From the NCBI GenBank assembly GCA_009835985.1, contig VXWI01000115.1, positions 11,145 to 75,144 of the forward strand: DNA of 64,000 nt. The letters are read 5' to 3'. The position numbers and the translations under genes were made by a program. This document shows, one piece after another, positions 15,174 to 64,000 of the stretch. Numbering within the stretch: the first letter of the stretch is position 1; each line of letters opens with the position of its first letter. Source of the DNA: Acidobacteriota bacterium. Its GTDB lineage: Bacteria; Acidobacteriota; Vicinamibacteria; Marinacidobacterales; Marinacidobacteraceae. The notes below the pieces were generated by a model. It saw nothing but the letters and a program-made list of their open reading frames with translations, had not been told where the DNA came from and did no database searches.

Positions 15174-15392
15174 GGAGCGCCGGCCTCCGGCCGGCGGCCA
15201 GTTCTCCCGGTGGGGGCCGCGCGCGAGCGCGAAACCCGCGCTGATGGCGCTCCTCCCCCTGAAGGTGGGCCCCACGTTCGGCTCGTTTCGGGCGGCACGC
15301 AGCCTTTCCCGGTTGGGATCACGCCATGGGAATCGGCTGCGGCGTGCGTTTCGCGGCCTGCGGCCGCGATGCCGGCCGGAGGCCGGCGCTCC
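15174..15392 (-). mobile_element. MITE-like repeat copy 2 (219 bp), inverted relative to copy 1; same perfect 22-bp terminal inverted repeats.
   Basis: Its sequence equals the reverse complement of 2824-3043 with about 90% identity, e.g. ...ggccagttctcccggtggggg... is the reverse complement of cccccaccgggagaactggcc. Lies between the lipoprotein gene and tal. A 10-bp-stem hairpin (cgtttccgcc-N11-ggcggaaacg) follows at 15403-15435. Confidence 0.75.
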
Positions 15393-15513
15393 GAGCTCCG
15401 GCCGTTTCCGCCATTGTCGTGACGGGCGGAAACGCCGCGTCAGTCGTGCCGCCAACCGGTAGAATCGCGCCGGGGCCGGGCCGAATTCCGGATTGACGAG
15501 GTGCCGGGCGCGC

Positions 15514-16161: not shown

Positions 16162-16197
16162 CCGGGCGCGCCGGAGGTCTGGCGAGGTCCGGCTGAA

Positions 16198-23743: not shown

Positions 23744-23780
23744 TCGGACCGTGGTGCAAGTGCCCCACCCCGGCCCGGGG

Positions 23781-45601: not shown

Positions 45602-46374
45602 CCGATCGGGTACTCGAGCGGCTCGTCCGGGCCGCCGAGGCGCGAGCCGAACGACTCGCCGCCGGTCCGGCGCCCGGCGCGCCTGAGCGGCCAGCCCCTT
45701 GCTTCCACACGGCGATCGGCGGGCGGGACGCGCTATCGGTCATCGCCGAGTTCAAACGGAAGAGTCCAAGCGCCGGGGCGATCCGCGACGACGATCCCGG
45801 GGCCCGGGCGCTGGCGTACCGGGAGGCCGGCGCCTCGGCCGTCTCCGTGCTGACCGACCCGGATGCGTTCGGGGGATCTCTGGACGACCTGTCGGCGGCT
45901 TCCGCGGCCGCAGGCCTGCCCATCCTCATGAAGGACTTCATCGTGGACCCGGCGCAGATCCGGGCGGGTTGGGCGGCGGGTGCGTCCGCGGTGCTGCTGA
46001 TCGTCCGCTGCCTGGACGACGCCCGGCTTCGCCAGCTCCATCGGGAGGCGCGGTCGCTCGGGCTCGACGCCCTGGTCGAGGTGCACGACGCGGCGGAGCT
46101 GGATCGCGCCCTTGCGCTCGAGGACGCCATCGTGGGGATCAACAACCGGGACCTGGACACGCTGCGGACGGACCGCGGGCGCGTTCGCGACCTCCTTCCC
46201 CAGGTCCCTTCCGGACGGATCGCGGTCGCCGAGAGCGGATACCTGGAGCCGGAACATCTGACGGAGTTGCGGGGGCGGGCGGACGCGGTGCTCATCGGGA
46301 CGGCGTTGATGCGCGCCGCCGATCCCTCGGCATTCCTCCGGGCCGCGACCGAACCCGTACCGGCCGGCGTCTGA
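45598..46374 (+). CDS. trpC: Indole-3-glycerol phosphate synthase.
   Basis: IAEFKRKSPSAGAI...ASAVSVLTD...GSLDDL, ILMKDFIVDPAQI, GINNRDLDTL. ATGA overlap with the trpD stop. Confidence 0.9.
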   Translation: MTDRVLERLVRAAEARAERLAAGPAPGAPERPAPCFHTAIGGRDALSVIAEFKRKSPSAGAIRDDDPGARALAYREAGASAVSVLTDPDAFGGSLDDLSAASAAAGLPILMKDFIVDPAQIRAGWAAGASAVLLIVRCLDDARLRQLHREARSLGLDALVEVHDAAELDRALALEDAIVGINNRDLDTLRTDRGRVRDLLPQVPSGRIAVAESGYLEPEHLTELRGRADAVLIGTALMRAADPSAFLRAATEPVPAGV

Positions 46375-46386
46375 CCGGCGCGCGTC

Positions 46387-47006
46387 GTGGAGATCAAGAT
46401 CTGCGGCCTCCGCCGCCCGGAGGACGCCCGCCTGGCCGTGCGGCTCGGGGCGCAGTGGATCGGGGTGGTCCGGGCTCCCGACTCCCCGCGCTCGGCAACG
46501 CTCGACGAAGCCCGGCAGGTAATCGCGGCCGCCAGGGAGGTCGATCCGGAGGTGCGCCCGGTGCTCGCGACCGGGAGGCGCACGCGCGACGAGGTCGCCT
46601 CGGACGCGTTTGCGCTGGGGGTGGAACGGGTCCAGCCGCACGGTCTCTCCGAAGCCGGGATCCGAACGCTGACACAAGCCGGCCTGATCGTTCACCGGGT
46701 CGTGACCGTGCCCGAATCCGCGGCCCGGCTTCCGGACTTCGAATCCCCCGCGGAGGATGCCGCGCCGCTCGTATTCGATGTGGGAGGGGGAGGCAGCGGC
46801 CGCGCCTTCGACTGGTGCATTCTGGGGGAGCGGGCTCCGGAACGGGCGTTCATCGCCGGCGGGTTGCGGCCCGAGAACATCGAACGGCTGCTCCCCTACC
46901 GGCCGTGGGGCGTGGATGTCTCGAGCGGGATCGAGTCGTCCCCCGGAGTCAAGGATCCGGAGCGGCTGCAGCGGTTCTTCGACCTGGTGCGGCCGCTGGC
47001 CGTGTC

Positions 47007-47010
<4 letters not shown>
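46387..47010 (+). CDS. trpF: Phosphoribosylanthranilate isomerase.
   Basis: VEIKICGLRRPEDARLAVRLGAQWIGVV..., FIAGGLRPENI. ATGA overlap with the trpB start. Confidence 0.85.
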
Positions 47011-48214
<1,204 letters not shown>

Positions 48215-48218
<4 letters not shown>

Positions 48219-50240: not shown

Positions 50241-51128
50241 ATGACCGAGCCGTCTCCGCCGCCACCCGAAGCGGGCGACGTTTCGTTCGCGCGGACCCTG
50301 CTCCAGTTCTTCGTGATCCCCATGGTGGTGGTGGTCCTCGGGGTGGGGATCTTCCTGGGGTTCGCGTGGCTCGTCTCCGACGACACGACCGCCGAGGAAC
50401 AGCTCCAGCGGATCCGTTCCGGGGGACACCGGGAAGCGCGGCAGGCGGCGTTCGAACTCGCGAACCGCATCCAGCACGGCGATCCCGCGGAGTTCCGGGC
50501 CCTGGGCCCCGATCTGGTGCGGGCGTTTGAAGAAGCGGCGCCGCCGACGGATCCGTGGGTGCGCCAATACCTCGCCCTGGCCCTCGGAACCCTTTCCGAA
50601 GCGGCGGCGGTTCCGGCGCTCGCCGTGGCCCTTTCCGATCCGGACGAGACGGTGCGGGTCTATGCCGCCTGGGCGCTTGGCTCCATCGGGGGCGGCACCG
50701 CGGTTTCCGCGCTCGGCGAAGCCAGCCGGGCCGAGGACGCCGGACTCCGCACCATGGCGGTCTACGGACTCGGGGCCATCGGCGATCCGGCGGGCGCCGA
50801 GGCGCTCAGAAGAGCGGTCGACGATCCCGTGCTGGACGTTTCCGTGAACGCGGTGGTGGCGCTCGCCCGAATCGGCGATGCGGCGGCCGCCGAACGGCTC
50901 CTCGGCATGATGGAGCCGGGCTACTGGGCGAACGTGCCGGGCATGCTGGACGGCGAGCGGACGCTCGCCCGGCTGAGCGCGGTGCAGGCGGCGGGCGTGC
51001 TCGAGACCCCGGTGGTCAGGGCCCGGCTCGAGGAGGTGGCGGCGAACGACCCGGATCTCAAGGTCCGGGAGGCCGCGCTCTCGGCCCTCGCGGGTCGGGG
51101 GAGGACGAGGCAGCCGGCCCCTCCCTGA
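50241..51128 (+). CDS. HEAT/PBS-lyase-repeat protein with N-terminal transmembrane segment.
   Basis: N-terminal TM (LLQFFVIPMVVVVLGVGIFLGFAWLV), then repeated HEAT-like units (VRQYLALALGTL, DETVRVYAAWALGSIG, LRTMAVYGLGAIGDPAGAEALRRAVDD, VSVNAVVALARIGD). Confidence 0.65.
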   Translation: MTEPSPPPPEAGDVSFARTLLQFFVIPMVVVVLGVGIFLGFAWLVSDDTTAEEQLQRIRSGGHREARQAAFELANRIQHGDPAEFRALGPDLVRAFEEAAPPTDPWVRQYLALALGTLSEAAAVPALAVALSDPDETVRVYAAWALGSIGGGTAVSALGEASRAEDAGLRTMAVYGLGAIGDPAGAEALRRAVDDPVLDVSVNAVVALARIGDAAAAERLLGMMEPGYWANVPGMLDGERTLARLSAVQAAGVLETPVVRARLEEVAANDPDLKVREAALSALAGRGRTRQPAPP

Positions 51129-51228: not shown

Positions 51229-51783
51229 ATGCCTGATCCCCCGGCCCAACCGGCAGCTCCCAAACCGGCTCCCCGGCGGGCTGCGAGCGCCGCGAAAAAG
51301 GTCACCCGCCGGGAGTTTCCGTTCCTCGCCATCGGCTGGGGCATGTTCACGGCCGCGATGGCGGCCGGCCTGACCGCGGCGGGCCGGTTCATGTTCCCGA
51401 ACGTGCTCACCGAGCCGCCTTCGACCTTCACGGCCGGCTTCCCGGATGACTTCGCCATCGGGGTCGTCGACACCCGTTTCAAGGAGCGCTACCAGGTCTG
51501 GATCGTCCGGGACGAGGAGGGGATCTACGCGCTCTCCACCATCTGCACCCACCTGGGATGCACCCCGAACTGGCTCGAGGCCGAAAGCAAGTTCAAGTGC
51601 CCGTGCCACGGCAGCGGGTTCTACGCCTCCGGGATCAACTTCGAGGGACCGGCGCCCCGGCCGCTGGAGCGCGTCGGGGTGAGTCTCGCGGAGGACGGCC
51701 AGGTCCTCATCGACAAGTCCCGTCTCTTCAAGTTCGAAGCGGGTCAGTGGAACGACCCCGCCTCCTTCCTCTCCCTGACGTAA
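51229..51783 (+). CDS. Rieske [2Fe-2S] subunit of a cytochrome bc/b6f-type complex.
   Basis: N-terminal TM anchor. Rieske boxes CTHLGC and CPCHGS separated by 15 residues. Confidence 0.9.
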
Positions 51784-51802
51784 TCACAAGGCAAGGGGCG
51801 TC

Positions 51803-52603
51803 ATGTTGAACCGCATCCTGGCGCCTCTCTCCGCCGCCTGGAAGGAGGCGACGGACTCGCAGGTCTGGACCTCGATCTTCCGGCACGGCAAGCCGGTCAG
51901 CAACCGGAACCGGGCGCTCGTGATGATGAGCAACGTGTTCCTGCACCTGCATCCGGTGAAGTCCCGGAAGGCGGGAATCAAGCTCCGCTACACCTGGTGC
52001 ATGGGAGGCATCACGTTCTTCCTCTTCCTGGTGCTCACCTTCACCGGGCTGCTCCTGATGTTCTACTACCGGCCCACGGTGGAGTACGCCTACGCGGACA
52101 TCGTGGACCTGCAGGAGCATGTGCCGCTCGGCATCATGCGCGAACTCCACCGCTGGGGCGCCCACGCCATGGTCATCACCGTGTGGCTGCACATGCTGCG
52201 GGTCTTCATGACCGGTTCCTACAAGCCGCCGCGGGAGTTCAACTGGGGCATCGGGGTGGTCCTGCTGGTGCTCACCCTGCTCCTCTCCTTCACCGGCTAC
52301 CTGCTGCCCTGGGACCAGTTGGCGATCTGGGCCATCGCGGTGGGTTCCAACATGGCGCGCGCGACGCCGCTGCTCGGAACGGAAGGGCCGTTATCGGCGT
52401 CCCTCACCCTGGGGGACATCAGCCTCATCAACGCGGGGAACGACGCACGCTTCGCGCTGCTGGGCGCCCGCTCGGTCGGCCAGCCGACGCTCCTCCGCTT
52501 CTACGTCCTCCACTGTGTCGGGTTACCCCTGGCGGCCGCCTTCCTGATGGCGGTGCATTTCTGGCGGGTCCGCAAGGACGGCGGAATCTCGGGGCCGATG
52601 TAG
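51803..52603 (+). CDS. Cytochrome b, N-terminal half (b6-like haem-binding four-helix core).
   Basis: Cytochrome b/b6 N-terminal domain. His ligands in [23 protein letters not shown]... and ...[12 protein letters not shown].... Confidence 0.85.
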
Positions 52604-52655
52604 GTGCGGAATCCACGCTTGAGAGAAGACGCTCCCGCCCCGACCCGTTGAGACC

Positions 52656-53777
52656 GTGATCGACCTCTTCAAGGACCTCGTCAACTGGGCCTCCGGGCCC
52701 ACGGTCCTGTTCACGATCGCGACGCTCGGCCTGTTGGCGGCCTTCCGCTTCACCCAGGTCTGGAGCAAGACCTCGGCGAAGGTGTTCTTCGTCGTCCTCG
52801 CGGTGTTCTACACCGCGAGCATGTGGGACCCCGACTTCTTGCTGATCGTCGCGAAGCCCGACAACATCCCGATCACCGGGGTCATCTTCCTGGTCTTCTT
52901 CTTCACCTGGTTCGCGATGCACCAGGGGATCCAGAACGACCGGCGGAGCGCGGGCGAGGGAGAGGTCCTCGAGAAGCAGGAGTCCGAGAAGGTCTGGGTG
53001 TGGCCCGATCTCGTCTACACCGAGATGCTCGCGATGGTGATTCTCAGCATCGTGCTGCTGGTGTGGTCCATCCTGCTGGCGGCGCCGCTGGAGCAGCCGG
53101 CGAACCCCGCCGATTCGCCGAACCCGTCCAAGGCGCCCTGGTATTTCCTCGGGCTCCAGGAGATGCTGGTCTATTTCGACCCGTGGCTCGCCGGAGTGGT
53201 CTTCCCCACGCTGATCATCGTGGGGCTGATGGCGATTCCCTACATCGACACGAACCCCAAGGGCAACGGGTACTTCACCTTCAAGGAGCGGAAGGCCGAG
53301 ATCGTCATCTTCCTGTTCGGCTTCTTGATCCTCTGGTGCCTGCTGGTCGTCTCGGGCACCTTCCTGCGTGGTCCCAACTGGAACTTCTTCGGCCCCTATG
53401 AGTACTGGGACGTCCACCGGGTGGAGCCGCTGCTCAACGTCAACGTCTCCGACTTCTTCTGGGTGAAGCTGCTCGGGCGTCCCTTGCCGACCGGCGGGTT
53501 CTTCGCCGCGCTCATGCGGGAATGGCTCGGCATCCTGATGGTGGGGGCCTACCTGTTCGTGCTTCCGGTGGTCATGTCGTGGCCGAGGGACAAGTTTCCC
53601 ACCGGGCTCAAGTGGCTGAGCTGCCACCACTACTTCGAAAAGATGGGCGCCACCCGCTACTACCTCGGCGTCAGCCTCTTCCTGATGATGATGAGCCTGC
53701 CGATCAAGATGTATCTGCGGTGGGCCTTCAACCTCAAATACATCGTCGCTTTCCCAGAGATCTTCTTCAACATCTAG
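52656..53777 (+). CDS. Cytochrome b C-terminal domain protein (subunit IV/PetD-like, extended).
   Basis: PWYFLGLQEMLVYFDPWLAGVVFPTLIIVGLMAIPYID matches the cytochrome b6f subunit IV / cytochrome b C-terminal domain. 373 aa with extra TM helices. Encoded separately from the N-terminal half (split cytochrome b). Confidence 0.8.
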   Translation: MIDLFKDLVNWASGPTVLFTIATLGLLAAFRFTQVWSKTSAKVFFVVLAVFYTASMWDPDFLLIVAKPDNIPITGVIFLVFFFTWFAMHQGIQNDRRSAGEGEVLEKQESEKVWVWPDLVYTEMLAMVILSIVLLVWSILLAAPLEQPANPADSPNPSKAPWYFLGLQEMLVYFDPWLAGVVFPTLIIVGLMAIPYIDTNPKGNGYFTFKERKAEIVIFLFGFLILWCLLVVSGTFLRGPNWNFFGPYEYWDVHRVEPLLNVNVSDFFWVKLLGRPLPTGGFFAALMREWLGILMVGAYLFVLPVVMSWPRDKFPTGLKWLSCHHYFEKMGATRYYLGVSLFLMMMSLPIKMYLRWAFNLKYIVAFPEIFFNI

Positions 53778-53787
53778 GCAACCCGCA

Positions 53788-56595
53788 GTGTCCAAAGTCG
53801 CGCCCGGTCACGCTCACAACATCTCGAAGCTGAACGTCATCTTTGCGGTTTCGAGCGTCTTCCTCCTGTTCTCGACGCTGTGGATGATCTGGTTCGACTA
53901 CTCGCGCGAGTGGAAGGGGTTCCAGCGGCAGTTCGTCCAGATGGAGCGCGACCTGACCGCGCGGCAGATCCAGGAGGCGCAGCAGGGGATCAACCAGGCG
54001 GACCTGCAACGCGTTCAGGGCGAACTCCAGCAGGCCCAGACCGCCCTCGCCGCCGAGCAGGCCGCGCTCGAGGCCATCGAAGCGGAGATCGCGGACCTCG
54101 ACACCCGCCGGACGCTGGCGGACATCCGCGAGCGCGAGATCAAGGCGGTCTACGACTCGGACAAGTTCTACTACGAGGAGACCCGCGAGCGCGGGACGCC
54201 GCTCGGCCGGGCGGTGAGCGACGAGGAGTTCGCGGCGCTCGAGACGAGCTTCTTCACCGCGCGCGACGTCCGGGTCGCCATCGACTTCGAGCTGACCCAG
54301 AAGCGGGCCGAACTCCGCGAACAGCGCTCCAGCGTGACGGAACTGGCCGGAGCGATGGAAGAGCTGACCCAGGCGGTGACGCTCGCCCGCAACAAGCTCG
54401 ACAGCCTGGCGCCCAGCTTCCCGAACACCTTCCGCAACCTGCCCGTCGTGGACTTCATCGATCCCTCGATCGAGGTTCGCCAGGTGCTCGTCCGGAACGT
54501 CACCGAGGAACTCAACTTCGCCCAGGTGCCGCGGATCGACCGCTGCCAGACCTGTCATCTCGCGATCGACAACCCCGACTACGCGGACGCGCCCCAGCCG
54601 TTCACCACGCACCCGAACCTGGACATTTTCGTCAGTCGCGAGTCCAGCCACCCGGTGGACGACTTCGGCTGCACCTCCTGCCACCTCGGACGGGGACGCA
54701 AGCTGAGTTTCAGCGGGGCGACCCACATGCCCGAGTCGGTCGAGGAAGAACACGCGTGGATGGAGCAGTACGGCTGGAAGGAAGACCACTACTGGGACAA
54801 CCCGATGTACCAGGCGAACCTCACGGAAGCCGGGTGCATCAAGTGCCACCGCGACCAGGTCTTCATTCCGGGGGCTCAGCACCTCAACCAGAGCCGGATG
54901 ACCTATGAACTCTCCGGCTGCTGGGGGTGTCACAACACGGCCGGTTACGAGGACAAGCGGAACCGGGGACCGTCGCTCAAGCGGATCGCCCACAAGACCG
55001 ATCGCGACTTCGTGGCGCGCTGGGTCCGGGACCCGAAGGCGTTCCGGCAGTCCACCTGGATGCCGACCTTCTGGAACCTCGACAACAACCCGGATTCCGA
55101 CCTCCAGGCTCGCAACGACACCGAGGTCGCGGCGATCGTGGAGTACGTCTTCGAGCATTCCACGGACGACGCCGACTACGCCGCGCCCCCGCGGGGGAGC
55201 GCGGCGCGCGGCGAGGCGCTGGTCAACGAGATCGGATGCCTCGGGTGCCACCTCACCGACGAGACCGGCTACGACCAGGCGAGCATCTACCGCCGGCGCG
55301 GCCCGGCGCTGGTGGGCACCGGCACCAAGCTGGACGCCGGCTTCGTCTACGAGTGGGTCCGGAACCCGCGGCACTACTGGGAAGAGACCTACATGCCGGA
55401 CCTTCGGCTCACCGACCAGGAGGCTGCCGACATCACCGCCTGGCTCATGGGGCTCGAGTCGAACGGGTTCGCGTCGATGGGGGTGCCGCAGGCAGACGCC
55501 GGCGAGCTCGACGAACTGACCCGCGAGTTCCTGAGGACCAGCCTCCCGGACGCGATGGCCGCCGAACGGCTCGCCGGAATGTCGGAGCGGGACAAGCTGC
55601 TCTTTTCGGGCGAATGGTTGATTCGCCGGCACGGCTGCTTCGGCTGCCATGAGATCGGCGGATTCGAAGATGCCCAGAAGATCGGGGTGGACCTTTCCAC
55701 CTGGGGCTCCAAGATGGTGACCCGCCTCGACTTCGGGTACATCGACATCCCCCACACCCGGCAAGCCTGGCTGGAGCAGAAGCTCACCTCGCCCCGCAGC
55801 TATGACCGCGGGAAGGTGAAGGCTCCGGCCGAGAAACTCCGCATGCCGCAGTTCGGATTCACCGACAGCGACCGGCAGCACATCGTGCGGAACGTGCTGG
55901 GCCTGGTGCGCGACGAGTTCCCCCAGGAGGGAACCAAGACGCTCTCCGCGGCCGAAGCGGTCGCCGAACAGGCCCGCCACCTCATCCACAACTACAACTG
56001 CCGCGGCTGCCATCTCATCGACGGCGTCGGGGGCGGGATCTACGAGACGATCGAGGACACGGGCATGCGGCCGCCCGACCTGCATACCCAGGGCAGGCGG
56101 ACCCAGGCGGACTGGCTCTACCACTTCCTCGAGGATCCGACGGAAGTGCGGTTCTGGCTGACCGCGCGGATGCCGAGTTTCAACTTCACCAACGAGGAAG
56201 CGAACACCCTGATCTCCGGGTTCCTGGCAATGGACGGCGGCCAGCCGTTCGACGACGAACAGGCCCGGGAGTACGACCGCGCGGAACTCCGGGTCGGTGC
56301 GCAGCTCCTCGACCAGCTCCAGTGCGAGCGCTGTCACATCGCCGCCGCCGCCGGCACCATGGAGGCGTCCCAGCTTGCTCCGTCCTTCCGGCTTGCCGGC
56401 GAGCGGCTGACCCACGACTGGATCGTGGACTGGATGCTCGATCCGCAGTCGATCACCCCGGGGACCCAGATGCCGCAGTTCTGGCCGACCGATCAACAGG
56501 GCAACCGGTTGACACCCCTGCCGGACATTCTGGACGGCGACCCGATGGCGCAGATGCGCGCGGTGGCGTCGTACCTGATGAACTACGACCGCTGA
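53788..56595 (+). CDS. Membrane-anchored octahaem c-type cytochrome.
   Basis: Eight CxxCH motifs: CQTCH, CTSCH, CIKCH, CWGCH, CLGCH, CFGCH, CRGCH, CERCH. N-terminal TM (ISKLNVIFAVSSVFLLFSTLWMIWF) followed by a coiled-coil. GTG start 11 nt after the cytochrome b stop. 935 aa. Confidence 0.85.
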   Translation: MSKVAPGHAHNISKLNVIFAVSSVFLLFSTLWMIWFDYSREWKGFQRQFVQMERDLTARQIQEAQQGINQADLQRVQGELQQAQTALAAEQAALEAIEAEIADLDTRRTLADIREREIKAVYDSDKFYYEETRERGTPLGRAVSDEEFAALETSFFTARDVRVAIDFELTQKRAELREQRSSVTELAGAMEELTQAVTLARNKLDSLAPSFPNTFRNLPVVDFIDPSIEVRQVLVRNVTEELNFAQVPRIDRCQTCHLAIDNPDYADAPQPFTTHPNLDIFVSRESSHPVDDFGCTSCHLGRGRKLSFSGATHMPESVEEEHAWMEQYGWKEDHYWDNPMYQANLTEAGCIKCHRDQVFIPGAQHLNQSRMTYELSGCWGCHNTAGYEDKRNRGPSLKRIAHKTDRDFVARWVRDPKAFRQSTWMPTFWNLDNNPDSDLQARNDTEVAAIVEYVFEHSTDDADYAAPPRGSAARGEALVNEIGCLGCHLTDETGYDQASIYRRRGPALVGTGTKLDAGFVYEWVRNPRHYWEETYMPDLRLTDQEAADITAWLMGLESNGFASMGVPQADAGELDELTREFLRTSLPDAMAAERLAGMSERDKLLFSGEWLIRRHGCFGCHEIGGFEDAQKIGVDLSTWGSKMVTRLDFGYIDIPHTRQAWLEQKLTSPRSYDRGKVKAPAEKLRMPQFGFTDSDRQHIVRNVLGLVRDEFPQEGTKTLSAAEAVAEQARHLIHNYNCRGCHLIDGVGGGIYETIEDTGMRPPDLHTQGRRTQADWLYHFLEDPTEVRFWLTARMPSFNFTNEEANTLISGFLAMDGGQPFDDEQAREYDRAELRVGAQLLDQLQCERCHIAAAAGTMEASQLAPSFRLAGERLTHDWIVDWMLDPQSITPGTQMPQFWPTDQQGNRLTPLPDILDGDPMAQMRAVASYLMNYDR

Positions 56596-56660
56596 TCGAA
56601 GCCGCCCCGGGACGCCTTGGCCGACAAGCGTTCCGTCAGTAACCCCAGGAGAAACATCAG

Positions 56661-57530
56661 ATGGCCGATGAACCGAAGGGAAGCCGCGGGAGTCTTCAGG
56701 GGATCGCCATGGCGGTCGTCATCTGGGCAATCGTGGTGCTCTCGTCGCTCTACTACGTCCGTTACGGAGTGCCCGAGCTGGCGTCCGACCGCGGCTATCT
56801 GGACAGCCTCTACTACGTGATCCTCGGGATCACCGGGGCCGCCTACATCCTGTATCAGCTCGCGCTCGGCTACGTCATCTACCGGTACCGTGGCGACCGG
56901 CCCGGCGCCGAGTCGAGCTACTGGCACGAAAGCCACAAGCTCGAACTCACCTGGACGATCGGAACCGCGGCCATCCTTATCCCGATCGTCTTCACCGGCC
57001 TGATCTACTGGGAGCGGGTCCGGGGGCCGGCGCCGGAGGATGCCGTGACCGTGATGGCGGTCGGGGCGCAGTTCCAGTGGGACTTCCACTATCCGGGGGC
57101 GGATGGCGAGTTCGGCCGCTTCGACCCCACGCTCTACGCCATCGACAACCAGATCGGCCTCGACGAGACGGACCCGGCGGCCGCGGACGACTGGGTGCTC
57201 ACCAACCAACTGGTGATCCCGGTGAATCGTCCGGCGCGCATCCTGATGCGGTCGAAGGACGTCCAGCACGCCATTTTCCTTCCCAACTTCCGGGTGAAGC
57301 AGGACCTGGTCCCGGGTATGACCACGGAGGTCTGGTTCACCCCGGTGAAGACCGGCAGTTACGAGGTGGCGTGCGCCGAGCTCTGTGGCCTCGGTCACTA
57401 CCGCATGCGCGCCTTCCTCGAGGTGATGGAAGAGGCCGACTACCGGCAGTGGCTGAGCGACAACGCGCCAGCCGCGGTGGCGGACGCCGGGGAACCGGCG
57501 GCGGACGCCCCGCCCGCCTCCGCGGAGTAG
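56661..57530 (+). CDS. coxB: Cytochrome c oxidase subunit II (CuA domain; no fused cytochrome c domain).
   Basis: Two TM helices, then the cupredoxin domain with CuA ligands in ...H....CAELCGLGHYRM. AGGAG RBS. Confidence 0.9.
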   Translation: MADEPKGSRGSLQGIAMAVVIWAIVVLSSLYYVRYGVPELASDRGYLDSLYYVILGITGAAYILYQLALGYVIYRYRGDRPGAESSYWHESHKLELTWTIGTAAILIPIVFTGLIYWERVRGPAPEDAVTVMAVGAQFQWDFHYPGADGEFGRFDPTLYAIDNQIGLDETDPAAADDWVLTNQLVIPVNRPARILMRSKDVQHAIFLPNFRVKQDLVPGMTTEVWFTPVKTGSYEVACAELCGLGHYRMRAFLEVMEEADYRQWLSDNAPAAVADAGEPAADAPPASAE

Positions 57531-57590
57531 GCGGGCAGATCAGGAATCGAACCAGGAAGCGGATCCCCCCAAGAACTACGGAGTAACGGC

Positions 57591-59315
57591 ATGGAGCACG
57601 AAAAGCAAGGCTTCGTGAGCAAGTACATCTTCAGCTTCGATCACAAGATGATCGGCAAGCAGTACTTCACGCTCGCGATGAGCATGGGGTTCATCGGCGG
57701 GATCCTGGCGGTGCTGATCCGCCTCCAGCTCGGCTTCCCCTCGCAGCCCTGGCCCTTCCTCGAGAACCTGTTCCCCGTCGGCATGGCCAGCGGGATCATG
57801 ACTCCCGAGTTCTACGTCTCGCTGTTCACGATGCACGGGACGATCATGGTGTTCTTCCTGCTCTCGCTGCTGCCGGTCAGCGGCTTCGGGAACTTCCTGA
57901 TCCCCCTCCAGATCGGGGCGCGCGACATGGCGTTCCCGTTCCTGAACATGCTGTCCTTCTGGACGGTGGTTCCGGGGGCGATCATCATCATCATCTCCTT
58001 CTTCGTGGAGGGCGGAGCCGCCGCCTCGGGCTGGACGGCCTACCCGCCGCTCTCGGCGATCCGCAGCGCCATCCCCGGTTCCGACCTGGGCCAGACCCTC
58101 TGGCTGGTCGGGATGATCTTCTTCGTGGCCTCGTTCACCATGGGCGGCCTCAACTTCGTGGTGACGATCCTGAACCTCAGGACGAAGGGGCTCCGGATGA
58201 TGCGGATGCCGCTCACCACCTGGGCCCAGTTCGTGGTCGGCATCCTGGGCCTGCTGTCCTTCCCCGCGCTGGCCGCGGGCGCGCTGCTGCTGACCTTCGA
58301 CCGTTCGCTCGGAACCAGCTTCTTCCTCCCGGCGGGCATCTTCATCGGCGACACCCTGATGCCCCACGAGGGTGGCACCCCGCTGCTCTGGCAGCACCTC
58401 TTCTGGTTCCTCGGCCACCCCGAGGTCTACATCATCATGTTGCCGGCCATGGGGTTCACCTCGGACATCCTGGCCACCTTCTGCCGCCGTCCCATCTTCG
58501 GTTACCGCTCGATGGTGTACGCCATCATGGCGATCGGCACCCTCAGCTTCCTGGTCTGGGGCCACCACATGTTCGTGAGCGGGATGAGCCCGTTCCTCGG
58601 CAGCCTCTTCGTGGTGACCACGCTCGCGATCGCCATTCCCTCGGCGGTCAAGGCCTTCAACTGGCTGTTCACCATCGCCCGAGCGCGGATCCAGTTCACG
58701 AGCGCCTCCCTGTTCGGGCTGGGCGTGGTCTCGCTCTTCGTGACCGGTGGCCTCACCGGCATCTTCCTCGGGACGAACGCCGTGGACATCCAGTTGCACG
58801 ACACCTACTTCGTGGTCGGGCACTTCCACTTCATCATGGCGGGCGCCGGGCTCTTCGGAGCCTTCGGGGCGGTCTACTACTGGTATCCCAAGATGTTCGG
58901 CAGGATGCTGAGCGAGCGTCTCGGGAAGATCCACTTCTGGATCACGTTCGTCGCCTACTACGCGGTGTTCTTCCCGATGCACTACCTGGGCGTCTCGGGA
59001 ATGATGCGCCGCATCTACGACCCGAACGTCTACGAATTCCTGCAGCCGCTGCAGCCGGTGAACCTGTTCATCACGATCGCCGCCTTCGTGCTGTTCGCCG
59101 GGCAGTTGATCTTCATCTACAACTACTTCGTGAGCATGCGGCGCGGCGCGCCGGCCACCGCGAACCCGTGGAACGCGGCCGGTCTCGAATGGTCCACACC
59201 GGCCTACCCGGGACACGGCAACTGGGAAGGCGAGATTCCGCCGGCCCACCGCTGGCCCTACGACTACTCCGAGCCCGGCAAGAAGCGTGACTTCACGCCG
59301 CAGTGGGAGGCCTGA
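57591..59315 (+). CDS. coxA: Cytochrome c oxidase subunit I (haem-copper oxidase catalytic subunit).
   Basis: WFFGHPEVYIIMLPAMGF, HHMFVSGM, and 12 TM helices typical of A-type haem-copper oxidase subunit I. 574 aa. Confidence 0.9.
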   Translation: MEHEKQGFVSKYIFSFDHKMIGKQYFTLAMSMGFIGGILAVLIRLQLGFPSQPWPFLENLFPVGMASGIMTPEFYVSLFTMHGTIMVFFLLSLLPVSGFGNFLIPLQIGARDMAFPFLNMLSFWTVVPGAIIIIISFFVEGGAAASGWTAYPPLSAIRSAIPGSDLGQTLWLVGMIFFVASFTMGGLNFVVTILNLRTKGLRMMRMPLTTWAQFVVGILGLLSFPALAAGALLLTFDRSLGTSFFLPAGIFIGDTLMPHEGGTPLLWQHLFWFLGHPEVYIIMLPAMGFTSDILATFCRRPIFGYRSMVYAIMAIGTLSFLVWGHHMFVSGMSPFLGSLFVVTTLAIAIPSAVKAFNWLFTIARARIQFTSASLFGLGVVSLFVTGGLTGIFLGTNAVDIQLHDTYFVVGHFHFIMAGAGLFGAFGAVYYWYPKMFGRMLSERLGKIHFWITFVAYYAVFFPMHYLGVSGMMRRIYDPNVYEFLQPLQPVNLFITIAAFVLFAGQLIFIYNYFVSMRRGAPATANPWNAAGLEWSTPAYPGHGNWEGEIPPAHRWPYDYSEPGKKRDFTPQWEA

Positions 59316-59347
59316 GCCTTCTCAGGATGCCGAAGGCAGGTTCCCCG

Positions 59348-59944
59348 ATGAGTTCGACCGCCGCCGGAGCCGCCGCGCCCATCGACGCGGCGCGGACCCC
59401 TGCCGACCGTCGTCACATCAACCGCCTCGGCCTGCTCGTGGCCCTCGGCGGGATCACGATGCTGTTCGCGGCCTTCACCTCCGCCTACATCGTGCGGAGT
59501 GGAGGCGGGGACTGGACGGCCCTCGAACTGCCACCGGTCCTCTGGATGAGCACGGCGCTGATCGTGGCAAGTTCGCTCACGCTCGAGCTGGCCCGGCGGG
59601 CCTTCCAGCGCGGCAGCCTCCCGTCCTTCCGGTCGTGGAGCGCCGCGACCGCGGCGCTCGGCACCGGGTTCCTGGCGAGTCAGTACGCCGCCTGGCTGTC
59701 GCTCAACGAGGCCGGGATCTACCTTCAGAGCCACCCGAAGAGTTCCTTCTTCTTCGTGTTGACCGGAGTGCACGCCGTCCATCTGCTGGCGGGCGTTGTG
59801 GCCCTGCTGGCGCTGTTCGGGCTGGCCGCCGCCGGCCGGCTCGTCCCGGGACGTTCGGACGCGCCCACCCTGACCGCCATCTACTGGCATTTCGTAGGCG
59901 GCCTGTGGATCTATCTGCTGGCCGTACTGTCTCTTCTCGGCTGA
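59348..59944 (+). CDS. coxC: Cytochrome c oxidase subunit III-family protein (short, 5-TM form).
   Basis: ...SFFFVLTGVHAVHLLAGVVALLALF...IYWHFVGGLWIYLLAVLSLLG is Cox3-like. The alternative ATG at 59327 is also in frame. Confidence 0.7.
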   Translation: MSSTAAGAAAPIDAARTPADRRHINRLGLLVALGGITMLFAAFTSAYIVRSGGGDWTALELPPVLWMSTALIVASSLTLELARRAFQRGSLPSFRSWSAATAALGTGFLASQYAAWLSLNEAGIYLQSHPKSSFFFVLTGVHAVHLLAGVVALLALFGLAAAGRLVPGRSDAPTLTAIYWHFVGGLWIYLLAVLSLLG

Positions 59945-59987
59945 TGTCTGTTTCGCAAACGGGACGCCGACTGGGAGAGGAGGACGC

Positions 59988-60593
59988 ATGAGCCAGACCG
60001 CGATTGCTCAGGCGGACTGGGGGGGCGGTGCGAGCCCCTTCGGCGTGACCTGGCAAAAGATGATGATGTGGTTCTTCATCGTCACCGACGCGCTGCTGTT
60101 CGCCGGCCTGCTGGTCAGCTACGGCGTGGTGCGGATTGCCACCGGAGACTGGCCGACGCAGAGCGAGGTCTTCAGCCTCACTTACATCGCGACGATGACG
60201 TTCGTGCTGATCACCTCGTCCGCCACCATGGCTTGCGGGGTGAAGGCGGCCGAGCTCGGGCGCCCGAAGACTGCCGCCAAGTTCGTCTGGCTCACGATCC
60301 TCGGGGGCTTCATCTTCCTCGGGATGCAGGCCTACGAGTGGTCCGTCTTCATCGGCGATGGCGGCGGAATTACCGCCAACCCCTGGGGTTCGCCCACCTT
60401 CAGCCAGTTCTTCTTCATCATCACCGGCTTCCACGGGTTCCACGTCCTCACCGGCGTGATCGTGCTGCTGGTGGTGGCGATCCGGGCCGCCATGGGCCGC
60501 TATTCCCCCGCCGGCGTCGAGAACGCCGGCCTCTACTGGCACTTCGTGGACCTCGTCTGGGTCTTCGTCTTCGCCCTCTTCTATCTGGTCTAG
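59988..60593 (+). CDS. Second cytochrome c oxidase subunit III-family protein.
   Basis: FFIITGFHGFHVLTGVIVLLVVAIRAA...LYWHFVDLVWVFVFALFYLV matches the Cox3 C-terminal signature. GGAGAGGAGG RBS. Confidence 0.8.
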   Translation: MSQTAIAQADWGGGASPFGVTWQKMMMWFFIVTDALLFAGLLVSYGVVRIATGDWPTQSEVFSLTYIATMTFVLITSSATMACGVKAAELGRPKTAAKFVWLTILGGFIFLGMQAYEWSVFIGDGGGITANPWGSPTFSQFFFIITGFHGFHVLTGVIVLLVVAIRAAMGRYSPAGVENAGLYWHFVDLVWVFVFALFYLV

Positions 60594-60603
60594 GAGAAGC
60601 CAA

Positions 60604-60921
60604 GTGTCAAGTGACGCCCATCCCTACCGCTTCTACTGGCTCCTCTGGGTGGTGCTCCTCGCCGTCACCCTCCTCATGATCGCGATCGAGGGCGCCAACC
60701 TGCCCGCTGCGCTGGCGGTCATCGTCCTGCTCTTCGGATCGGCGATCAAGGCCACCCTCATCATCTTCTACTACATGCACCTCAAGTTCGAGCACATGGG
60801 GCTGATCATGACGGTGCTCGTTGGTTTGTTCGTGACCGCGATCCTGATGTTCGTTCTCCCGGCCTACGACGGCGGCCACATCCTGGATTCGTTCCAGAGC
60901 CTGAAGGAGTATTCGGGCTGA
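60604..60921 (+). CDS. Prokaryotic cytochrome c oxidase subunit IV (CoxD/CtaF-like small membrane subunit).
   Basis: YRFYWLLWVVLLAVTLLMIAIE...IIFYYMHLKFEHMGLIMTVLVGLF... matches the caa3/aa3 subunit IV family (Pfam COX4_pro). GTG start after AGGAG. Confidence 0.7.
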   Translation: MSSDAHPYRFYWLLWVVLLAVTLLMIAIEGANLPAALAVIVLLFGSAIKATLIIFYYMHLKFEHMGLIMTVLVGLFVTAILMFVLPAYDGGHILDSFQSLKEYSG

Positions 60922-60926
60922 CCGCG

Positions 60927-61229
60927 ATGTCCCGTTCCGGCCTCCTCGTCCTGTTCGCGGTGGCGGCGTTCCTGGCGCTGCTCCCCGCCGACGGGTCCGG
61001 CCAGTGCTCCATGTGCCGGACGGCGCTGGAGCAGAACGAAGAGGTTGCCGCCAGCTTCAACAATGCGATCCTGTTCCTGCTGGCGATGCCGTACGCGGTC
61101 TTTGCCTCGGGAGTCGGCTACGTGCTGGTGTCGCGCCGGCGACGCGCGCGGCGGTCCGCCGCCGTGACGGCTCCGGAAGTCCGCGCCGAATTGCTTCCCG
61201 CCGACGATCCGATCAGCGTCACCTCCTGA
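60927..61229 (+). CDS. Small membrane protein with signal/TM segment, CxxC motif (GQCSMCRT) and a second TM helix; possibly oxidase-associated.
   Basis: 100-aa ORF immediately downstream of the oxidase subunit genes with 5-nt spacing. No family confidently recognised. Confidence 0.4.
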   Translation: MSRSGLLVLFAVAAFLALLPADGSGQCSMCRTALEQNEEVAASFNNAILFLLAMPYAVFASGVGYVLVSRRRRARRSAAVTAPEVRAELLPADDPISVTS

Positions 61230-61380: not shown

Positions 61381-62061
61381 TCACCGGTCCAGTCGTTCTT
61401 CGATGCGCTTCAGTCGGTCCTCGATCCGGCGTAGCCGGGCATCCGGAGCCGACTCGAGGAAGTACGCCGCGACCGCCCCCCCAAACGTGGCGAAAACGCC
61501 GATTCCGACGAGCATGAGAATTCCGCCGACGATTCTCCCCAGCAGGGAGACCGGCGCAATGTCCCCGTAACCGACGGTCGTCGCGGTGACCAAGGCCCAC
61601 CAGACACCGTTCCAGATACTGCCTACGGCCTTCGGCTCCGCCACGTAGACCAGCGCGCCCCCGACGAGTACCGACAGCAGCAGGACGCCCACGACGGGCC
61701 GGACCCCTGACCGCCCAACGACACCCTGAAGCGCGGGCAGCGCTTTTCCCGCCGCCGACGCGATCAGGAGCACGCGAGCAAGCCGCGCCAATCGCGCGAG
61801 CCGCGAGAGCGCAAGAACCCCCGGCAGCAGAGGGAAACTCAGGACCACGATCGCCAGACTCAACCCCTTTCGGGCGGGCCGGGCGCCCCGCCAGAAATCG
61901 GCGGCGAGGTCGAAGACGAAAATCAGCCAGATGACCCAGTCCGCCGCCACCGTCTGCGGCGTCAGTACCCCTTGTGCTTCAAGAACAACCAGGGGAACCG
62001 TCGCGAGCGCCGCGACGACAACTGCGGCGTCGATCCACCGGAGCGCTCGTGCGCCACTCAT
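61381..62061 (-). CDS. Voltage-gated-type potassium channel (ion_trans family; S4-like RLARLARLARV and TVGYGD selectivity filter).
   Basis: K+ selectivity filter TTVGYGD. Arg-repeat S4-like helix. Four or more TM segments. 226 aa from ATG 62061. Confidence 0.8.
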   Translation of the reverse strand: MSGARALRWIDAAVVVAALATVPLVVLEAQGVLTPQTVAADWVIWLIFVFDLAADFWRGARPARKGLSLAIVVLSFPLLPGVLALSRLARLARLARVLLIASAAGKALPALQGVVGRSGVRPVVGVLLLSVLVGGALVYVAEPKAVGSIWNGVWWALVTATTVGYGDIAPVSLLGRIVGGILMLVGIGVFATFGGAVAAYFLESAPDARLRRIEDRLKRIEERLDR

Positions 62062-62143
62062 GGCTTCCCGGGATTCGAACAGAGAAGCGCGGACAGGGCC
62101 GATCCCGGCGAAGACCGGAGGGGGCGCATCGCGCGCTCTCGGG

Positions 62144-63085
62144 TCACTCCTCGCTCGGGAACGCGTAGTAGCCGTTCCGCGTGCGCGCCAGCAGGTCCCG
62201 GCGCCCCCGAACCGACACCTCGATCTCGCGCCACTCGCCGTCCCTTTCCGCCTCTCGCGGGATGTAGGCAAGCCGGTACTGGGCGTGCATGTCCGCCTCG
62301 ATCCGGGCGAAGCTGCCGATGAGATCGCCGGTCCGCTCCGGGAAGAGCGCCTGACCGCCGGTCTCTTCCGTGAGCCGGCGCAGGAACCGCTTGTTGACCC
62401 GGGCGCCGTTTCCCTCGAATCCGATGGCGTAGACGACGGCATCGGTGAGCCGGGCGGCCTCGATGGCGTCGCCGGCGCTCATCTCGCTGCCGAACCCCAT
62501 GCTCCGCGAGTCGTCGCCGTCGGTGAAGATCAGGAGCACCTTGCGGTCCCCGTCGGCGAAATGGAGCCGCTCGAGGGCCATGATCGAGGCGTCGTAGAGC
62601 GCGGTCGGCCCCAGGGGGTCGAGGGCCATGATGTTTGCCGTGAGCCGAAACCGGTCGTCGGTGAACTCGCCTCCGAAGCGGACCCGGTCGTTGAACTCGC
62701 CGATCATGGCGACATCGCCCTCCCAGAGCCGATCCACGAAGGTCGCGGCGGCTTCCTTCACGTAGTCGAGGCTGACCCTCATGCTCAGGGAGGCGTCGAG
62801 AAGCACGAGGATCGTGAGCGGGGCGGCCTCGGCCGCGAAGAAGCTGATCTGCTGGGGAACTCCATCCTCCCGAACCACGAAGTCATCGGCCGCCAGGCCG
62901 GAGACGAAACGGCCGCGCTCGTCGCTCACCGCCACCCCCAGGTTGACCGCCTCGACCTGCACCTGGATGCGGAAGGGGTCCTGCTGGGTCCGGCCGGCGC
63001 CGGCGAGGGCCAAGGTGCCCGCGATCGCTGCGGAAAGAGCGACGGCCACGCCGGCCGGCGCCTTTGTTCGTATCCACCGGGACAT
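62144..63085 (-). CDS. Secreted von Willebrand factor type A (VWA) domain protein (TIGR03436-like).
   Basis: Signal peptide. VWA/MIDAS motif LVLLDASLSM ... LLIFTDGDDS. About 313 aa. Confidence 0.7.
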   Translation of the reverse strand: MSRWIRTKAPAGVAVALSAAIAGTLALAGAGRTQQDPFRIQVQVEAVNLGVAVSDERGRFVSGLAADDFVVREDGVPQQISFFAAEAAPLTILVLLDASLSMRVSLDYVKEAAATFVDRLWEGDVAMIGEFNDRVRFGGEFTDDRFRLTANIMALDPLGPTALYDASIMALERLHFADGDRKVLLIFTDGDDSRSMGFGSEMSAGDAIEAARLTDAVVYAIGFEGNGARVNKRFLRRLTEETGGQALFPERTGDLIGSFARIEADMHAQYRLAYIPREAERDGEWREIEVSVRGRRDLLARTRNGYYAFPSEE

Positions 63086-63351
63086 TCTCGAAGTTTCCCC
63101 TCGGTTCCGGGTATTTTGTCGCGGCGACGCGAGAAAACGGTGACGGAACCTGCGGACCGCCCGTCTGGTCCGGTCGCACGATCGAGGCAGGCCCAAACCT
63201 CGCGGGGCTGCTACAATTCCCGGCTCGAATCCGGGGCGAAACCGCCCCGCTGAGTCGGTTTCCCGGCTGTCAGGTGCGGCCCGAATCTGTCAGGCCCACC
63301 GGTTGGACCGCAGTTCAATCCCCTGCCCACGGAACGGAGGTTCCTCGCACG

Positions 63352-64000
63352 ATGCTTCAAAGAGCCCCTCGCACGCTCATTCTGCTCGCGATTCCCCTCG
63401 CCGCCGCCCTGATGGTCGGCTGCGGCGGTGGCGGCGAATCGGACACCGCGATGGAGGCCGTTCCGGCCGCCTCCATGACCACCGTGGATCCGGCCACCGC
63501 CGGGACCATCAGCGGCACGATCATGCTCGACGGCGAGGCCCCGCCGGCCGACGCCATCCAGATGGCCGCGGACCCCAACTGCGCCCGAATGCACGACAGC
63601 CCGGTGATGACCGAGTTCGTGATCACGGACATGGAGGGCGGCCTGCAGAACGCCTTCGTGTACATCAAGGGCGGCCTCGAAGGCATGAGCTTCCCGGTGC
63701 CGACCGAGCCGGTCGTCCTGAACCAGGAGGGCTGCGTCTACGTGCCGCACGTGCTGGGCATCCAGGTCGGACAGGAGCTCAACATCCTGAACAGCGACGC
63801 GACGCTCCACAACATCCACGCGACCCCGACCGCGAACCAGGAGTTCAACATCGGCCAGCCGGTGGCGAACATGAGCACCACCCGGACGTTCGACACCGTC
63901 GAGATCATGGTTCCGTTCAAGTGCGACGTGCACCGCTGGATGAACAGCTACGCGGGCGTCCTCGACCATCCCTACTTCGCGGTGAGCGGCATGGACGGCT
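63352..64000 (+). CDS. Lipoprotein with cupredoxin-like (type-1 copper) C-x2-H-x2-M motif; partial (runs off the window end).
   Basis: GGAACGGAGG RBS. Lipobox LAAALMVGCGG. Candidate blue-copper ligands H...C-D-V-H-R-W-M (TLHNIHATP...FKCDVHRWM). Frame remains open to position 64000. Confidence 0.55.
   Translation, partial: MLQRAPRTLILLAIPLAAALMVGCGGGGESDTAMEAVPAASMTTVDPATAGTISGTIMLDGEAPPADAIQMAADPNCARMHDSPVMTEFVITDMEGGLQNAFVYIKGGLEGMSFPVPTEPVVLNQEGCVYVPHVLGIQVGQELNILNSDATLHNIHATPTANQEFNIGQPVANMSTTRTFDTVEIMVPFKCDVHRWMNSYAGVLDHPYFAVSGMDG

Follow-up and report, generated by a model that had tools for sequence, protein, structure and literature searches.

Results

Gene content and operon character of the locus

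The window analysed here is a stretch of 64,000 nucleotides (nt) of chromosomal DNA, about 70% GC, from an Acidobacteriota bacterium (contig VXWI01000115.1, positions 11,145 to 75,144 of the forward strand). At 51229–61229 it carries ten co-directional open reading frames (ORFs) on the + strand, which encode in order a Rieske protein, a cytochrome b split into a b6-type subunit and an extended subunit IV, an octahaem cytochrome c, an aa3-type oxidase (CoxII, CoxI, two CoxIII paralogues and CoxIV) and a small CxxC protein. All ten have a third-codon-position GC of 0.86–0.95 and are therefore genuine coding frames. A preliminary description of this DNA, made from the sequence, had presented them as a respiratory super-operon with short or overlapping spacers; the ten genes lie exactly where it placed them, and profile searches (Pfam and NCBIfam) assign nine of the ten to the families it named, the last, an ORF of 100 amino acids (aa), belonging to none. 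What it missed was a conserved gene at the head of the respiratory genes, encoding a HEAT-repeat protein (50241–51128), and it mentioned only incidentally a cupredoxin lipoprotein gene, present from 63352 onward, that is evolutionarily linked to the system.

From the Rieske gene to the mini-protein gene, the intergenic distances are 19, 52, 10, 65, 60, −13, 43, 10 and 5 nt. A terminator scan found four terminator-like sites, none of them in a + strand intergenic spacer, and a simple promoter scan found no promoter-like sites across the region; in an organism of 70% GC the first result carries little weight and the second is uninformative. The 65-nt spacer between the octahaem and CoxII genes folds at the level of shuffled sequence (z = 0.09), and an AGGAGA ribosome-binding site lies just 5′ of the coxB ATG. 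A GC-rich hairpin stands 3′ of the last gene, beyond which the next genes are convergent, on the opposite strand. From the short spacers, the lack of terminators and the unstructured 65-nt junction we infer that the string is probably co-transcribed.

A predicted quinol-oxidizing module related to cytochrome b6f

The HEAT, Rieske, b6, subunit IV and octahaem genes, all on the + strand, form what we call module 1. A scan of one genome per species for relatives of the octahaem cytochrome places module 1 in several phyla, with at least 575 genomes giving a match; the best 80 loci were examined and are the related loci referred to below. They come from Acidobacteriota, Omnitrophota, Planctomycetes, Marinimicrobia and Eisenbacteria, the nearest genomes being metagenome-assembled genomes (MAGs) labelled Candidatus Marinacidobacterium or Vicinamibacteria.

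The membrane-anchored HEAT-repeat protein (50241..51128; Pfam HEAT_2, E-value 3e-23, and HEAT_PBS) is the product of the first gene. Its ORF opens at a TTG at 50121, the ATG at 50241 being the likely start. The protein has a single transmembrane helix with a conserved QFF[LV]IP motif, the flanks of which give near-equal Lys+Arg values under the positive-inside rule (1.8 versus 1.5), and NCBIfam finds weak similarity to NblB and to CpcE-type bilin lyases. The gene stands upstream of the Rieske gene in 54 of the 55 related loci with enough flanking sequence, across phyla; the conserved core thus consists of five genes and starts at 50241, not at 51229.

The Rieske [2Fe-2S] subunit (51229..51783; Pfam Rieske), whose best NCBIfam match is of the b6f PetC type, has a twin-arginine (TRREF) signal-anchor and the cluster-binding boxes CTHLGC and CPCHGSGF, which are conserved in related loci. 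The second box reads CPCHGSGF in 56 of 63 loci and CPCHGSGY in six, an S-F or S-Y signature from which a 'Mid+' or high potential is predicted; S..F is the 'Mid+' signature of Kao & Hunte (2014; PMC4122944).

The b6-type subunit (51803..52603; Pfam Cytochrome_B, E-value 9e-40) has four helices, and its closest solved chains are the b6 subunits of cyanobacterial and chloroplast b6f complexes (E-value 1e-42); the NCBIfam ExtP model matches at 268 bits, under its cut-off of 290. Putative haem bL and bH ligands (H116, H130, H237 and H252) and a putative haem-ci cysteine (C66, in TWCMGG) are at least 95% conserved among 63 sequences, and the TWCMGG motif and His ligands persist in 63–69 loci. Before helix A, at residues 45–52, lies a segment NVFLHLHPV, of which H48 and H50 are also at least 95% conserved. 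For complexes of Kuenenia, AlphaFold3 predicts that the dimer interface holds one further b haem, bound by a histidine (PMC12954380), and the HLHP histidines may correspond to that site.

Subunit IV (52656..53777) is encoded by a separate ORF, as in b6f-type cytochromes, and at 373 aa is extended as the preliminary description had claimed. It matches Pfam Cytochrom_B_C and the NCBIfam models for ExtQ and b6f subunit IV, and has about 6–7 hydrophobic segments, the extra ones lying N- and C-terminal to the three-helix core; matches in the PDB span just residues 115–229. The Qo motif at residue 160 is APWY, as it is in 74 of 74 related loci, and the core features of b6, Rieske and subunit IV taken together are conserved in 62–74. 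An extra haem site at a C-terminal 'CHH' of subunit IV was considered and dropped; the motif is not conserved.

Module 1 contains no cytochrome f gene, its only c-type cytochrome gene being that of the 935-aa octahaem protein, and the NCBIfam models for QcrB, QcrC and QcrA score far under their cut-offs. In and beside the module no gene for a FAD- or NAD(P)-binding protein, NAD(P) oxidoreductase, iron-sulfur protein or substrate-oxidizing enzyme was found. By its Qo motif and Rieske signature the complex would belong to the APWY clade defined by Kao & Hunte (2014; PMC4122944), of which, according to that paper, no member had been characterized in vitro or in vivo; the earlier remark that octahaem bc complexes are poorly characterized agrees with this.

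A membrane-anchored octahaem cytochrome, probably for electron transfer

The octahaem cytochrome c (53788..56595) is a protein of 935 aa with one N-terminal transmembrane helix and eight CxxCH motifs, at positions 253, 295, 350, 378, 484, 617, 738 and 846, which are invariant in 71 homologues with identity down to 38%. The preliminary description had it replacing the usual c1 or dihaem subunit, and this reading is supported. A protein 100% identical to it is annotated by NCBI as 'cytochrome c'. Its gene is directly 3′ of that for subunit IV in all related loci retaining upstream sequence, with the exception of L029. The transmembrane anchor and its flanks are the best-conserved non-haem part of the protein (G7, H8, A9 ... 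W42, K43, Q46 and R47 are invariant). This position and the conserved anchor together indicate a c-type, integral subunit of module 1. An invariant PGHA motif precedes the helix, on the cytoplasmic side.

In an AlphaFold2 (AF2) model of the protein, with a mean predicted local distance difference test (pLDDT) of 73.8, the predicted transmembrane helix (13–37) is followed by a helical hairpin (41–207; helices 41–135 and 145–207) that would extend about 95 Å. The stretch with the first two haem motifs is poorly modelled, and predicted domains are well folded from about residue 340. Along the chain, closely spaced motifs at 253, 295 and 350 give way to five class-I-like cytochrome c repeats (378, 484, 617, 738 and 846), the motif at 350 lying at the edge of the first. 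These five are mutually homologous (hhalign probability 95–99% for nine of ten pairs), each comprising one CxxCH and then a conserved Met, mostly as a Met-Pro pair. This pattern indicates His/Met-ligated, relatively high-potential, electron-transfer haems, and on its sequence the octahaem looks like an electron-transfer protein rather than a catalytic one.

Kinship with HAO or nitrite reductases, which the preliminary description had named as a finding that would count against its reading, was sought and rejected: there were no Pfam or NCBIfam matches to HAO, nitrite reductase or NrfA, all eight motifs are CxxCH, and none is CxxCK. Family matches in Pfam and NCBIfam are limited to the cytochrome c, FixO and SoxX types. 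A profile search of the PDB gave CcoO as the best match (E-value 2e-4) and no solved homologue, and Foldseek with the whole model returned nothing below 1e-3, just coiled-coil proteins and SoxX; the neighbours of the hairpin are coiled coils such as the periplasmic adaptor hairpins of EmrA and HlyD.

An A1-type oxidase module with two subunits III and a CxxC mini-protein

The oxidase genes are likewise on the + strand. CoxII (56661..57530; 289 aa; Pfam COX2) scores 148.7 bits with the CoxB model TIGR02866, against a cut-off of 147.7, and has a complete CuA motif in its translation (H...CAELCGLGHYRM); motif and score show that the enzyme is not a quinol oxidase, and the QoxA and CyoA models score far under their cut-offs. 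CoxII carries no CxxCH motif and matches no cytochrome c family, so that the fused domain of a caa3-type enzyme is lacking.

CoxI (57591..59315; Pfam COX1, E-value 7e-147) contains the motifs FTMHG, GHPEVY, WGHHMF and GHFHF, together with DMAFP in the D-channel and SAVKAF in the K-channel. The predicted ligands of haem a, haem a3 and CuB, the cross-linked Tyr and the glutamate of GHPEV are all present, and mark it as a presumptive A1-type subunit. Among solved subunits I the closest is that of Bacillus subtilis aa3-600 (402 bits), followed by mycobacterial CtaD (395 bits).

Two genes for subunit III follow. Paralogue a (59303..59944; Pfam COX3; NCBIfam CtaE, QoxC and CyoC types) is of the short type of about 200 aa, and paralogue b (59988..60593) matches Pfam COX3 with an E-value of 4e-15. 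They share 31% identity, so that the earlier claim of an A-type oxidase with two distinct subunit-III paralogues holds, and both are present in 16 of 16 oxidase-linked loci and in a stand-alone oxidase operon (L081). CoxIV (60604..60921) scores 34 bits with Pfam COX4_pro (cut-off 28.9).

The CxxC mini-protein at the end of the string (60927..61229; 100 aa), also noted in the preliminary description, has a signal peptide, CSMC at residue 27 and a transmembrane helix. It matches no Pfam or NCBIfam family, and just 67 relatives, all without a family name, were found among 5.8 billion proteins; the motif AQC[SA]MC[RV]TALEQN and the transmembrane helix are nevertheless conserved in 16 loci. Its gene always follows that for CoxIV, in L081 as elsewhere, and hence it is part of the oxidase module, perhaps as a small subunit or as an assembly factor handling copper or thiols.

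Genes for haem A and haem O synthesis (ctaA and ctaB) are absent from the operon in the window. In a relative with a larger genome (L008), a haem O synthase of the UbiA family (15499–16395) lies between CoxI and CoxIIIa, and a haem A synthase (COX15-CtaA, 18368–19252) after the mini-protein; gene spacing suggests the same layout in L009–L014. On the metagenomic contig L081, CoxII, CoxI, CoxIII, CoxIII, CoxIV and mini-protein genes stand by themselves (5727–10276), with ClpS divergent upstream and no bc-type genes upstream of the operon. The oxidase module, including its second CoxIII and the CxxC protein, is therefore an independent unit.

The two modules are joined in one lineage

Adjacency was counted where 1.5 kb or more of sequence is available downstream of the octahaem gene, as it is in 75 loci. 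The octahaem gene directly adjoins that for CoxII in 16 of these, each a species-level genome, and also in the truncated locus L046; all belong to one marine acidobacterial clade, with an octahaem identity of at least 57% (range 57–94%). Elsewhere other genes follow: in a soil acidobacterial MAG (L016) these are genes for a hexapeptide transferase, histidyl- and aspartyl-tRNA synthetases (HisRS and AspRS) and PhoH, and homologues of these genes are found downstream in about 15 others. In 46 of the 75 loci, neither oxidase nor cupredoxin genes occur within 10 kb of the octahaem gene, which means that module 1 is not specialized for this oxidase. Since each module is also found alone, the 'super-operon' is a lineage-specific junction of two independent modules; the tight linkage noted earlier is real in the window, where the string is free of terminators, but direct adjacency is confined to this clade. 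Linkage recurs in a different arrangement in two Planctomycetales loci (L056 and L061).

A cupredoxin lipoprotein linked to both modules

The lipoprotein gene (63352..64000, + strand) is cut by the end of the window; at full length the protein has about 262 aa. It has a lipobox and, in LHNIH...CDVHRWM, a predicted copper-ligand set of His and Cys-x2-His-x2-Met with the spacing of amicyanin. The H/C/H/M residues are conserved in 27 homologues, and the pattern LHN[IV]H ... C[DE][VA]HxWM is invariant in 40. The C-terminal part is a CarboxypepD_reg-like beta-sandwich. An AF2 model of a full-length homologue, 96% identical, has a pLDDT of 84.4; its top Foldseek matches in the PDB are almost all amicyanin, pseudoazurin and plastocyanin (probability 1.00), with a target-normalized template modelling score (TM-score) of 0.62–0.67 against amicyanin, and the fold predicted is the Greek key of cupredoxins.

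The cupredoxin gene is directly 3′ of the octahaem gene in 12 loci, which belong to Omnitrophota, Planctomycetes, Eisenbacteria, Terriglobia and other Acidobacteriota. In the clade of the window it lies 6–8 kb downstream of the octahaem gene, past the oxidase genes, and in the window itself 2.1 kb past the last of these. The Planctomycetales loci have the orders octahaem, cupredoxin, CoxI (L061) and octahaem, 3 kb of unrelated genes, cupredoxin, CoxI, CoxIII, CoxII, CtaA (L056). In an Omnitrophica locus (L053, 13678–15255) a second copy of the cupredoxin is fused to the N-terminus of CoxII; the same architecture in P0337, at 68% identity, shows that the fusion is not an assembly error. In P0404 the cupredoxin is joined to CoxIV through a Pro/Ala/Glu-rich linker of about 200 aa. 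The family is also found fused to a Urate_ox_N membrane domain (P0402), and tandem duplicates occur (P0308, P0311, P0315 and P0318).

As far as gene order and fusions can tell, evolution has tied the cupredoxin to the system, and it is no incidental neighbour. Its adjacency to octahaem and CoxI genes and its fusions to CoxII and CoxIV suggest that it is likely to be a tethered one-electron carrier from the octahaem to CuA, which is the simplest reading; on the simplest reading, too, the tether would be a lipid in Acidobacteriota and the polypeptide chain itself in the fusion proteins. A role as copper chaperone is less likely, because the protein has a type-1 ligand set and its gene accompanies the bc-type module without a nearby oxidase. 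Proteins combining cupredoxin and CarboxypepD_reg domains number about 18,000 representatives at 50% identity and are labelled inconsistently, as 'carboxypeptidase regulatory-like domain protein' (NCBI) or 'plastocyanin' (JGI); the present analysis improves the annotation of this family.

Discussion

Proposed electron path and alternatives

Gene identities, cofactor motifs, conserved gene order, the predicted cupredoxin fold and the fusions lead us to favour, with moderate confidence, the view that the last part of an aerobic chain, from quinol to oxygen, is encoded here by two joined modules, with the cupredoxin connecting the octahaem to CuA. The direction of electron flow would be as follows. 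A quinol, which we take to be menaquinol, as presumed from acidobacterial quinones, would be oxidized at the APWY Qo site of the b6f-like module 1. One electron would pass through the Rieske cluster to the membrane-anchored octahaem, standing in place of cytochrome f or c1, and the second would enter a Q cycle by way of haems bL, bH and ci. The octahaem, with its high-potential His/Met haems, would most likely hand electrons to the lipid-tethered, amicyanin-like cupredoxin and this to CuA, from which they would travel by way of haem a to haem a3-CuB, where oxygen would be reduced. As an alternative to the cupredoxin step, transfer may occur directly from haem to CuA within a supercomplex.

Several observations weigh against this view. 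The cupredoxin assignment meets some resistance: Foldseek E-values are marginal (9e-4 to 1e-2), Pfam finds in the lipoprotein only the CarboxypepD_reg-like domain and no cupredoxin family, and the NCBIfam amicyanin match has an E-value of just 0.003–0.008. Two opposite-strand genes separate the cupredoxin gene from the operon in the window, so that it is not co-transcribed with it. Eight haems far exceed what a bridge to CuA needs, and in most of the loci counted (the 46 of 75) module 1 has neither oxidase nor cupredoxin close by. Finally, Kao & Hunte propose reverse operation for APWY-type complexes (PMC4122944).

The preliminary description, sound as to the genes, the split cytochrome b, the octahaem and the oxidase type, went on to propose a dedicated bc-aa3 supercomplex, wired internally by the octahaem, and in that form the proposal is not supported: the modules occur alone, and a cupredoxin is indicated as the link. 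In its strong form this would be an obligate supercomplex of eleven gene products in which the octahaem wires the Rieske cluster to CuA without any carrier, after the model of the actinobacterial bcc-aa3 supercomplex, which is wired through the dihaem QcrC. The absence of a cytochrome c domain from CoxII, the packing of the genes in one terminator-free string, the octahaem-oxidase adjacency kept in 16 genomes and the closeness of CoxI to mycobacterial supercomplex CtaD, nearly as great as to any solved chain, are all in keeping with it. We nevertheless regard it as unlikely, given that both modules occur independently and that the cupredoxin is tied to both of them by adjacency and by the CoxII and CoxIV fusions; beside a dedicated octahaem wire, a cupredoxin carrier would be redundant. 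The independence of the modules might be taken further, to mean that they are mere neighbours, separately transcribed and uncoupled, with the octahaem complex feeding a general periplasmic pool, as the many module 1 loci with no oxidase or cupredoxin nearby and the solitary oxidase of L081 would allow. That is less probable still: the adjacency, with spacers below 300 nt, has been kept throughout a clade whose octahaem proteins have diverged to as little as 57% identity, all three components are linked again, in another order, in Planctomycetales, and cupredoxin and oxidase are joined in Rosetta-stone fusions.

It seems very improbable to us that the Rieske/b6 module runs in reverse or bifurcates, passing electrons from a high-potential donor to the quinone pool, or that the octahaem is a catalytic reductase. 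The reverse proposal made for APWY complexes by Kao & Hunte (PMC4122944) would favour this, as would the proposal that related Kuenenia complexes bifurcate to NAD(P)+ (PMC12954380), but here no NAD(P) oxidoreductase or substrate-oxidizing gene was found in or next to the module, the octahaem lacks HAO, NrfA or CxxCK features, and what the module is paired with in the operon is an oxygen reductase. This pairing also speaks against the idea that APWY complexes in general operate in reverse.

A broader suggestion can be put forward only tentatively, and we think it doubtful: that the HEAT protein, the APWY Rieske/b6 core, the hairpin octahaem and the tethered cupredoxin leading to an aa3 oxidase make up an undescribed respiratory unit of Acidobacteriota, Planctomycetes, Omnitrophota and Marinimicrobia. 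Were it true, APWY complexes would work forwards in aerobic respiration, and the PBS-lyase-like HEAT protein would be a new complex-specific subunit or assembly factor. That this protein helps to attach haem ci is speculative; we know of no haem-ci attachment factor outside the CCB system of oxygenic phototrophs.

Comparison with known systems

The APWY clade of Kao & Hunte is scattered over Deltaproteobacteria, Chloroflexi, Nitrospirales, Planctomycetes and others, with Rieske proteins of 'Mid+' to high predicted potential (PMC4122944). Baymann et al. (2012; PMC3509893) had already described complexes with a split cytochrome b and a ci cysteine in Acidobacteria, Planctomycetes and Gemmatimonadetes, and the 'additional species' of their groups A1/A2 include Solibacter usitatus and Planctomyces; the APWY clade is probably the same as these groups. 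The window complex resembles them in its split b6-type cytochrome b, haem-ci Cys, APWY motif, S-F Rieske signature and patchy distribution across phyla. It differs in what surrounds this core: in their searchable text the two papers classify cytochrome b and Rieske proteins only (PMC4122944 and PMC3509893), and the octahaem subunit, the HEAT protein, the cupredoxin and the aa3 link are not mentioned there.

Operons with Rieske, split cytochrome b and 'atypical octahaem cytochrome c' genes are known from Nitrospina gracilis, Ca. Methylomirabilis oxyfera and Kuenenia stuttgartiensis (PMC3578206; PMC12954380). Compared by architecture, they share the succession of Rieske, b6 and subunit IV and then a hexa- or octahaem protein replacing cytochrome f, and in Kuenenia subunit IV also has extra helices. 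In Nitrospina and M. oxyfera, however, the octahaem proteins have 767 and 856 aa and subunit IV about 270 aa, as against 935 and 373 aa in the window; the cytochrome b of Nitrospinae falls in a GPWY clade (PMC4122944). In Kuenenia the complexes further include subunits of an NAD(P) oxidoreductase as well as an HAO-like protein, both of which are lacking from the window module.

Cytochrome b6f provides the chains closest to the b6 and subunit IV core, with the same haem ligands and ci Cys. Unlike b6f, the window complex has no cytochrome f, reads APWY rather than PEWY, has a subunit IV more than twice as long and adds a HEAT protein and an octahaem cytochrome. With the actinobacterial bcc-aa3 system, in which qcrCAB lie next to ctaE, it shares the linkage of complex-III-like and oxidase genes and the replacement of a soluble cytochrome c by a membrane-bound multihaem protein, whereas QcrB is unsplit, QcrC is dihaem and the two enzymes form an obligate III2IV2 assembly; in the window the cytochrome b is split. 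The genes of a complex-III-like enzyme are also linked with those of an oxidase in Sulfolobus SoxM and in ACIII-oxidase clusters and supercomplexes, which differ from the window in their quinol-oxidizing module (for example ACIII).

Cupredoxins as partners of oxidases are not without parallel, comparable ones being auracyanin (with ACIII) and sulfocyanin. AcoP of Acidithiobacillus ferrooxidans is a cupredoxin partner of a terminal oxidase (PMC4059628), and a halocyanin encoded in a haloarchaeal Rieske/cytb cluster was noted by Baymann et al. as a proposed donor to an oxidase (PMC3509893). As with AcoP and halocyanin, an A-type oxidase would here be accompanied, genetically or physically, by a type-1-like copper protein tethered to the membrane. 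The family described here differs from AcoP, auracyanin, halocyanin and sulfocyanin in its CarboxypepD_reg-like domain, its amicyanin-type C-x2-H-x2-M loop and its CoxII and CoxIV fusions.

In the literature searched, no description of this assembly was found. Rieske/split-b/multihaem operons as such have been noted from genomes since about 2011–2013 (PMC3578206, PMC3509893 and PMC4122944). The 935-aa hairpin octahaem family, the HEAT gene, the cupredoxin with its fusions and the aa3 junction appear to be undescribed.

APWY-type Rieske/cytochrome b complexes occur in many abundant, poorly studied phyla, and the only published functional suggestion that we found for them is that they run backwards (PMC4122944). 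The present operon, in which such a complex is joined with an oxygen reductase, is so far the clearest argument from genomes for an ordinary, forward complex III role in aerobic respiration, and it is strengthened by the cupredoxin, whose gene adjoins that of the octahaem or of CoxI or is fused with that of CoxII or CoxIV. The analysis also supplies a concrete list of components: the HEAT protein, the octahaem cytochrome, the cupredoxin, the second subunit III and the CxxC mini-protein.

Other features of the window

The remaining genes are of a housekeeping kind, including those for HslV/HslU-like proteins, transaldolase, carboxylase subunits, TamB, an Omp85 protein, a sigma-70 factor, amidases, trpD/B/A and DAHP synthase, and the gene content gives no sign of a mobile element. 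Converging on the respiratory operon are an ion-channel ORF (Ion_trans_2; 61381–62442, − strand) and a VWA-domain ORF (62144–63196, − strand), which overlap by about 300 nt. The VWA gene is syntenic in the clade, and the start of the channel gene is probably farther downstream than the listed ATG. A true conservation of the N-terminus of the ion-channel ORF in related loci was considered and dropped, since it coincides with the overlap and is probably that of an alternative frame of the VWA gene.

Just upstream of the respiratory genes, in the row trpD-trpB-trpA-DAHP synthase, an ORF of 839 aa (45699–48218) has PALP (TrpB-like) as its only Pfam match, at residues 494–818; the long stretch N-terminal to this match probably reflects a start placed too far upstream or belongs to another gene, and a 207-aa ORF (46387–47010) lies in a different frame within this region. 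Farther away, two long ORFs overlap on opposite strands (13065–15119, + strand, and 13254–15827, − strand); both pass the third-codon-position GC filter, and the + strand ORF has no Pfam family match. At 19829–26555 a TamB-like gene (1304 aa) adjoins an Omp85/POTRA gene (951 aa); the pair fits a diderm cell, which would have a periplasm to accommodate the octahaem and the cupredoxin.

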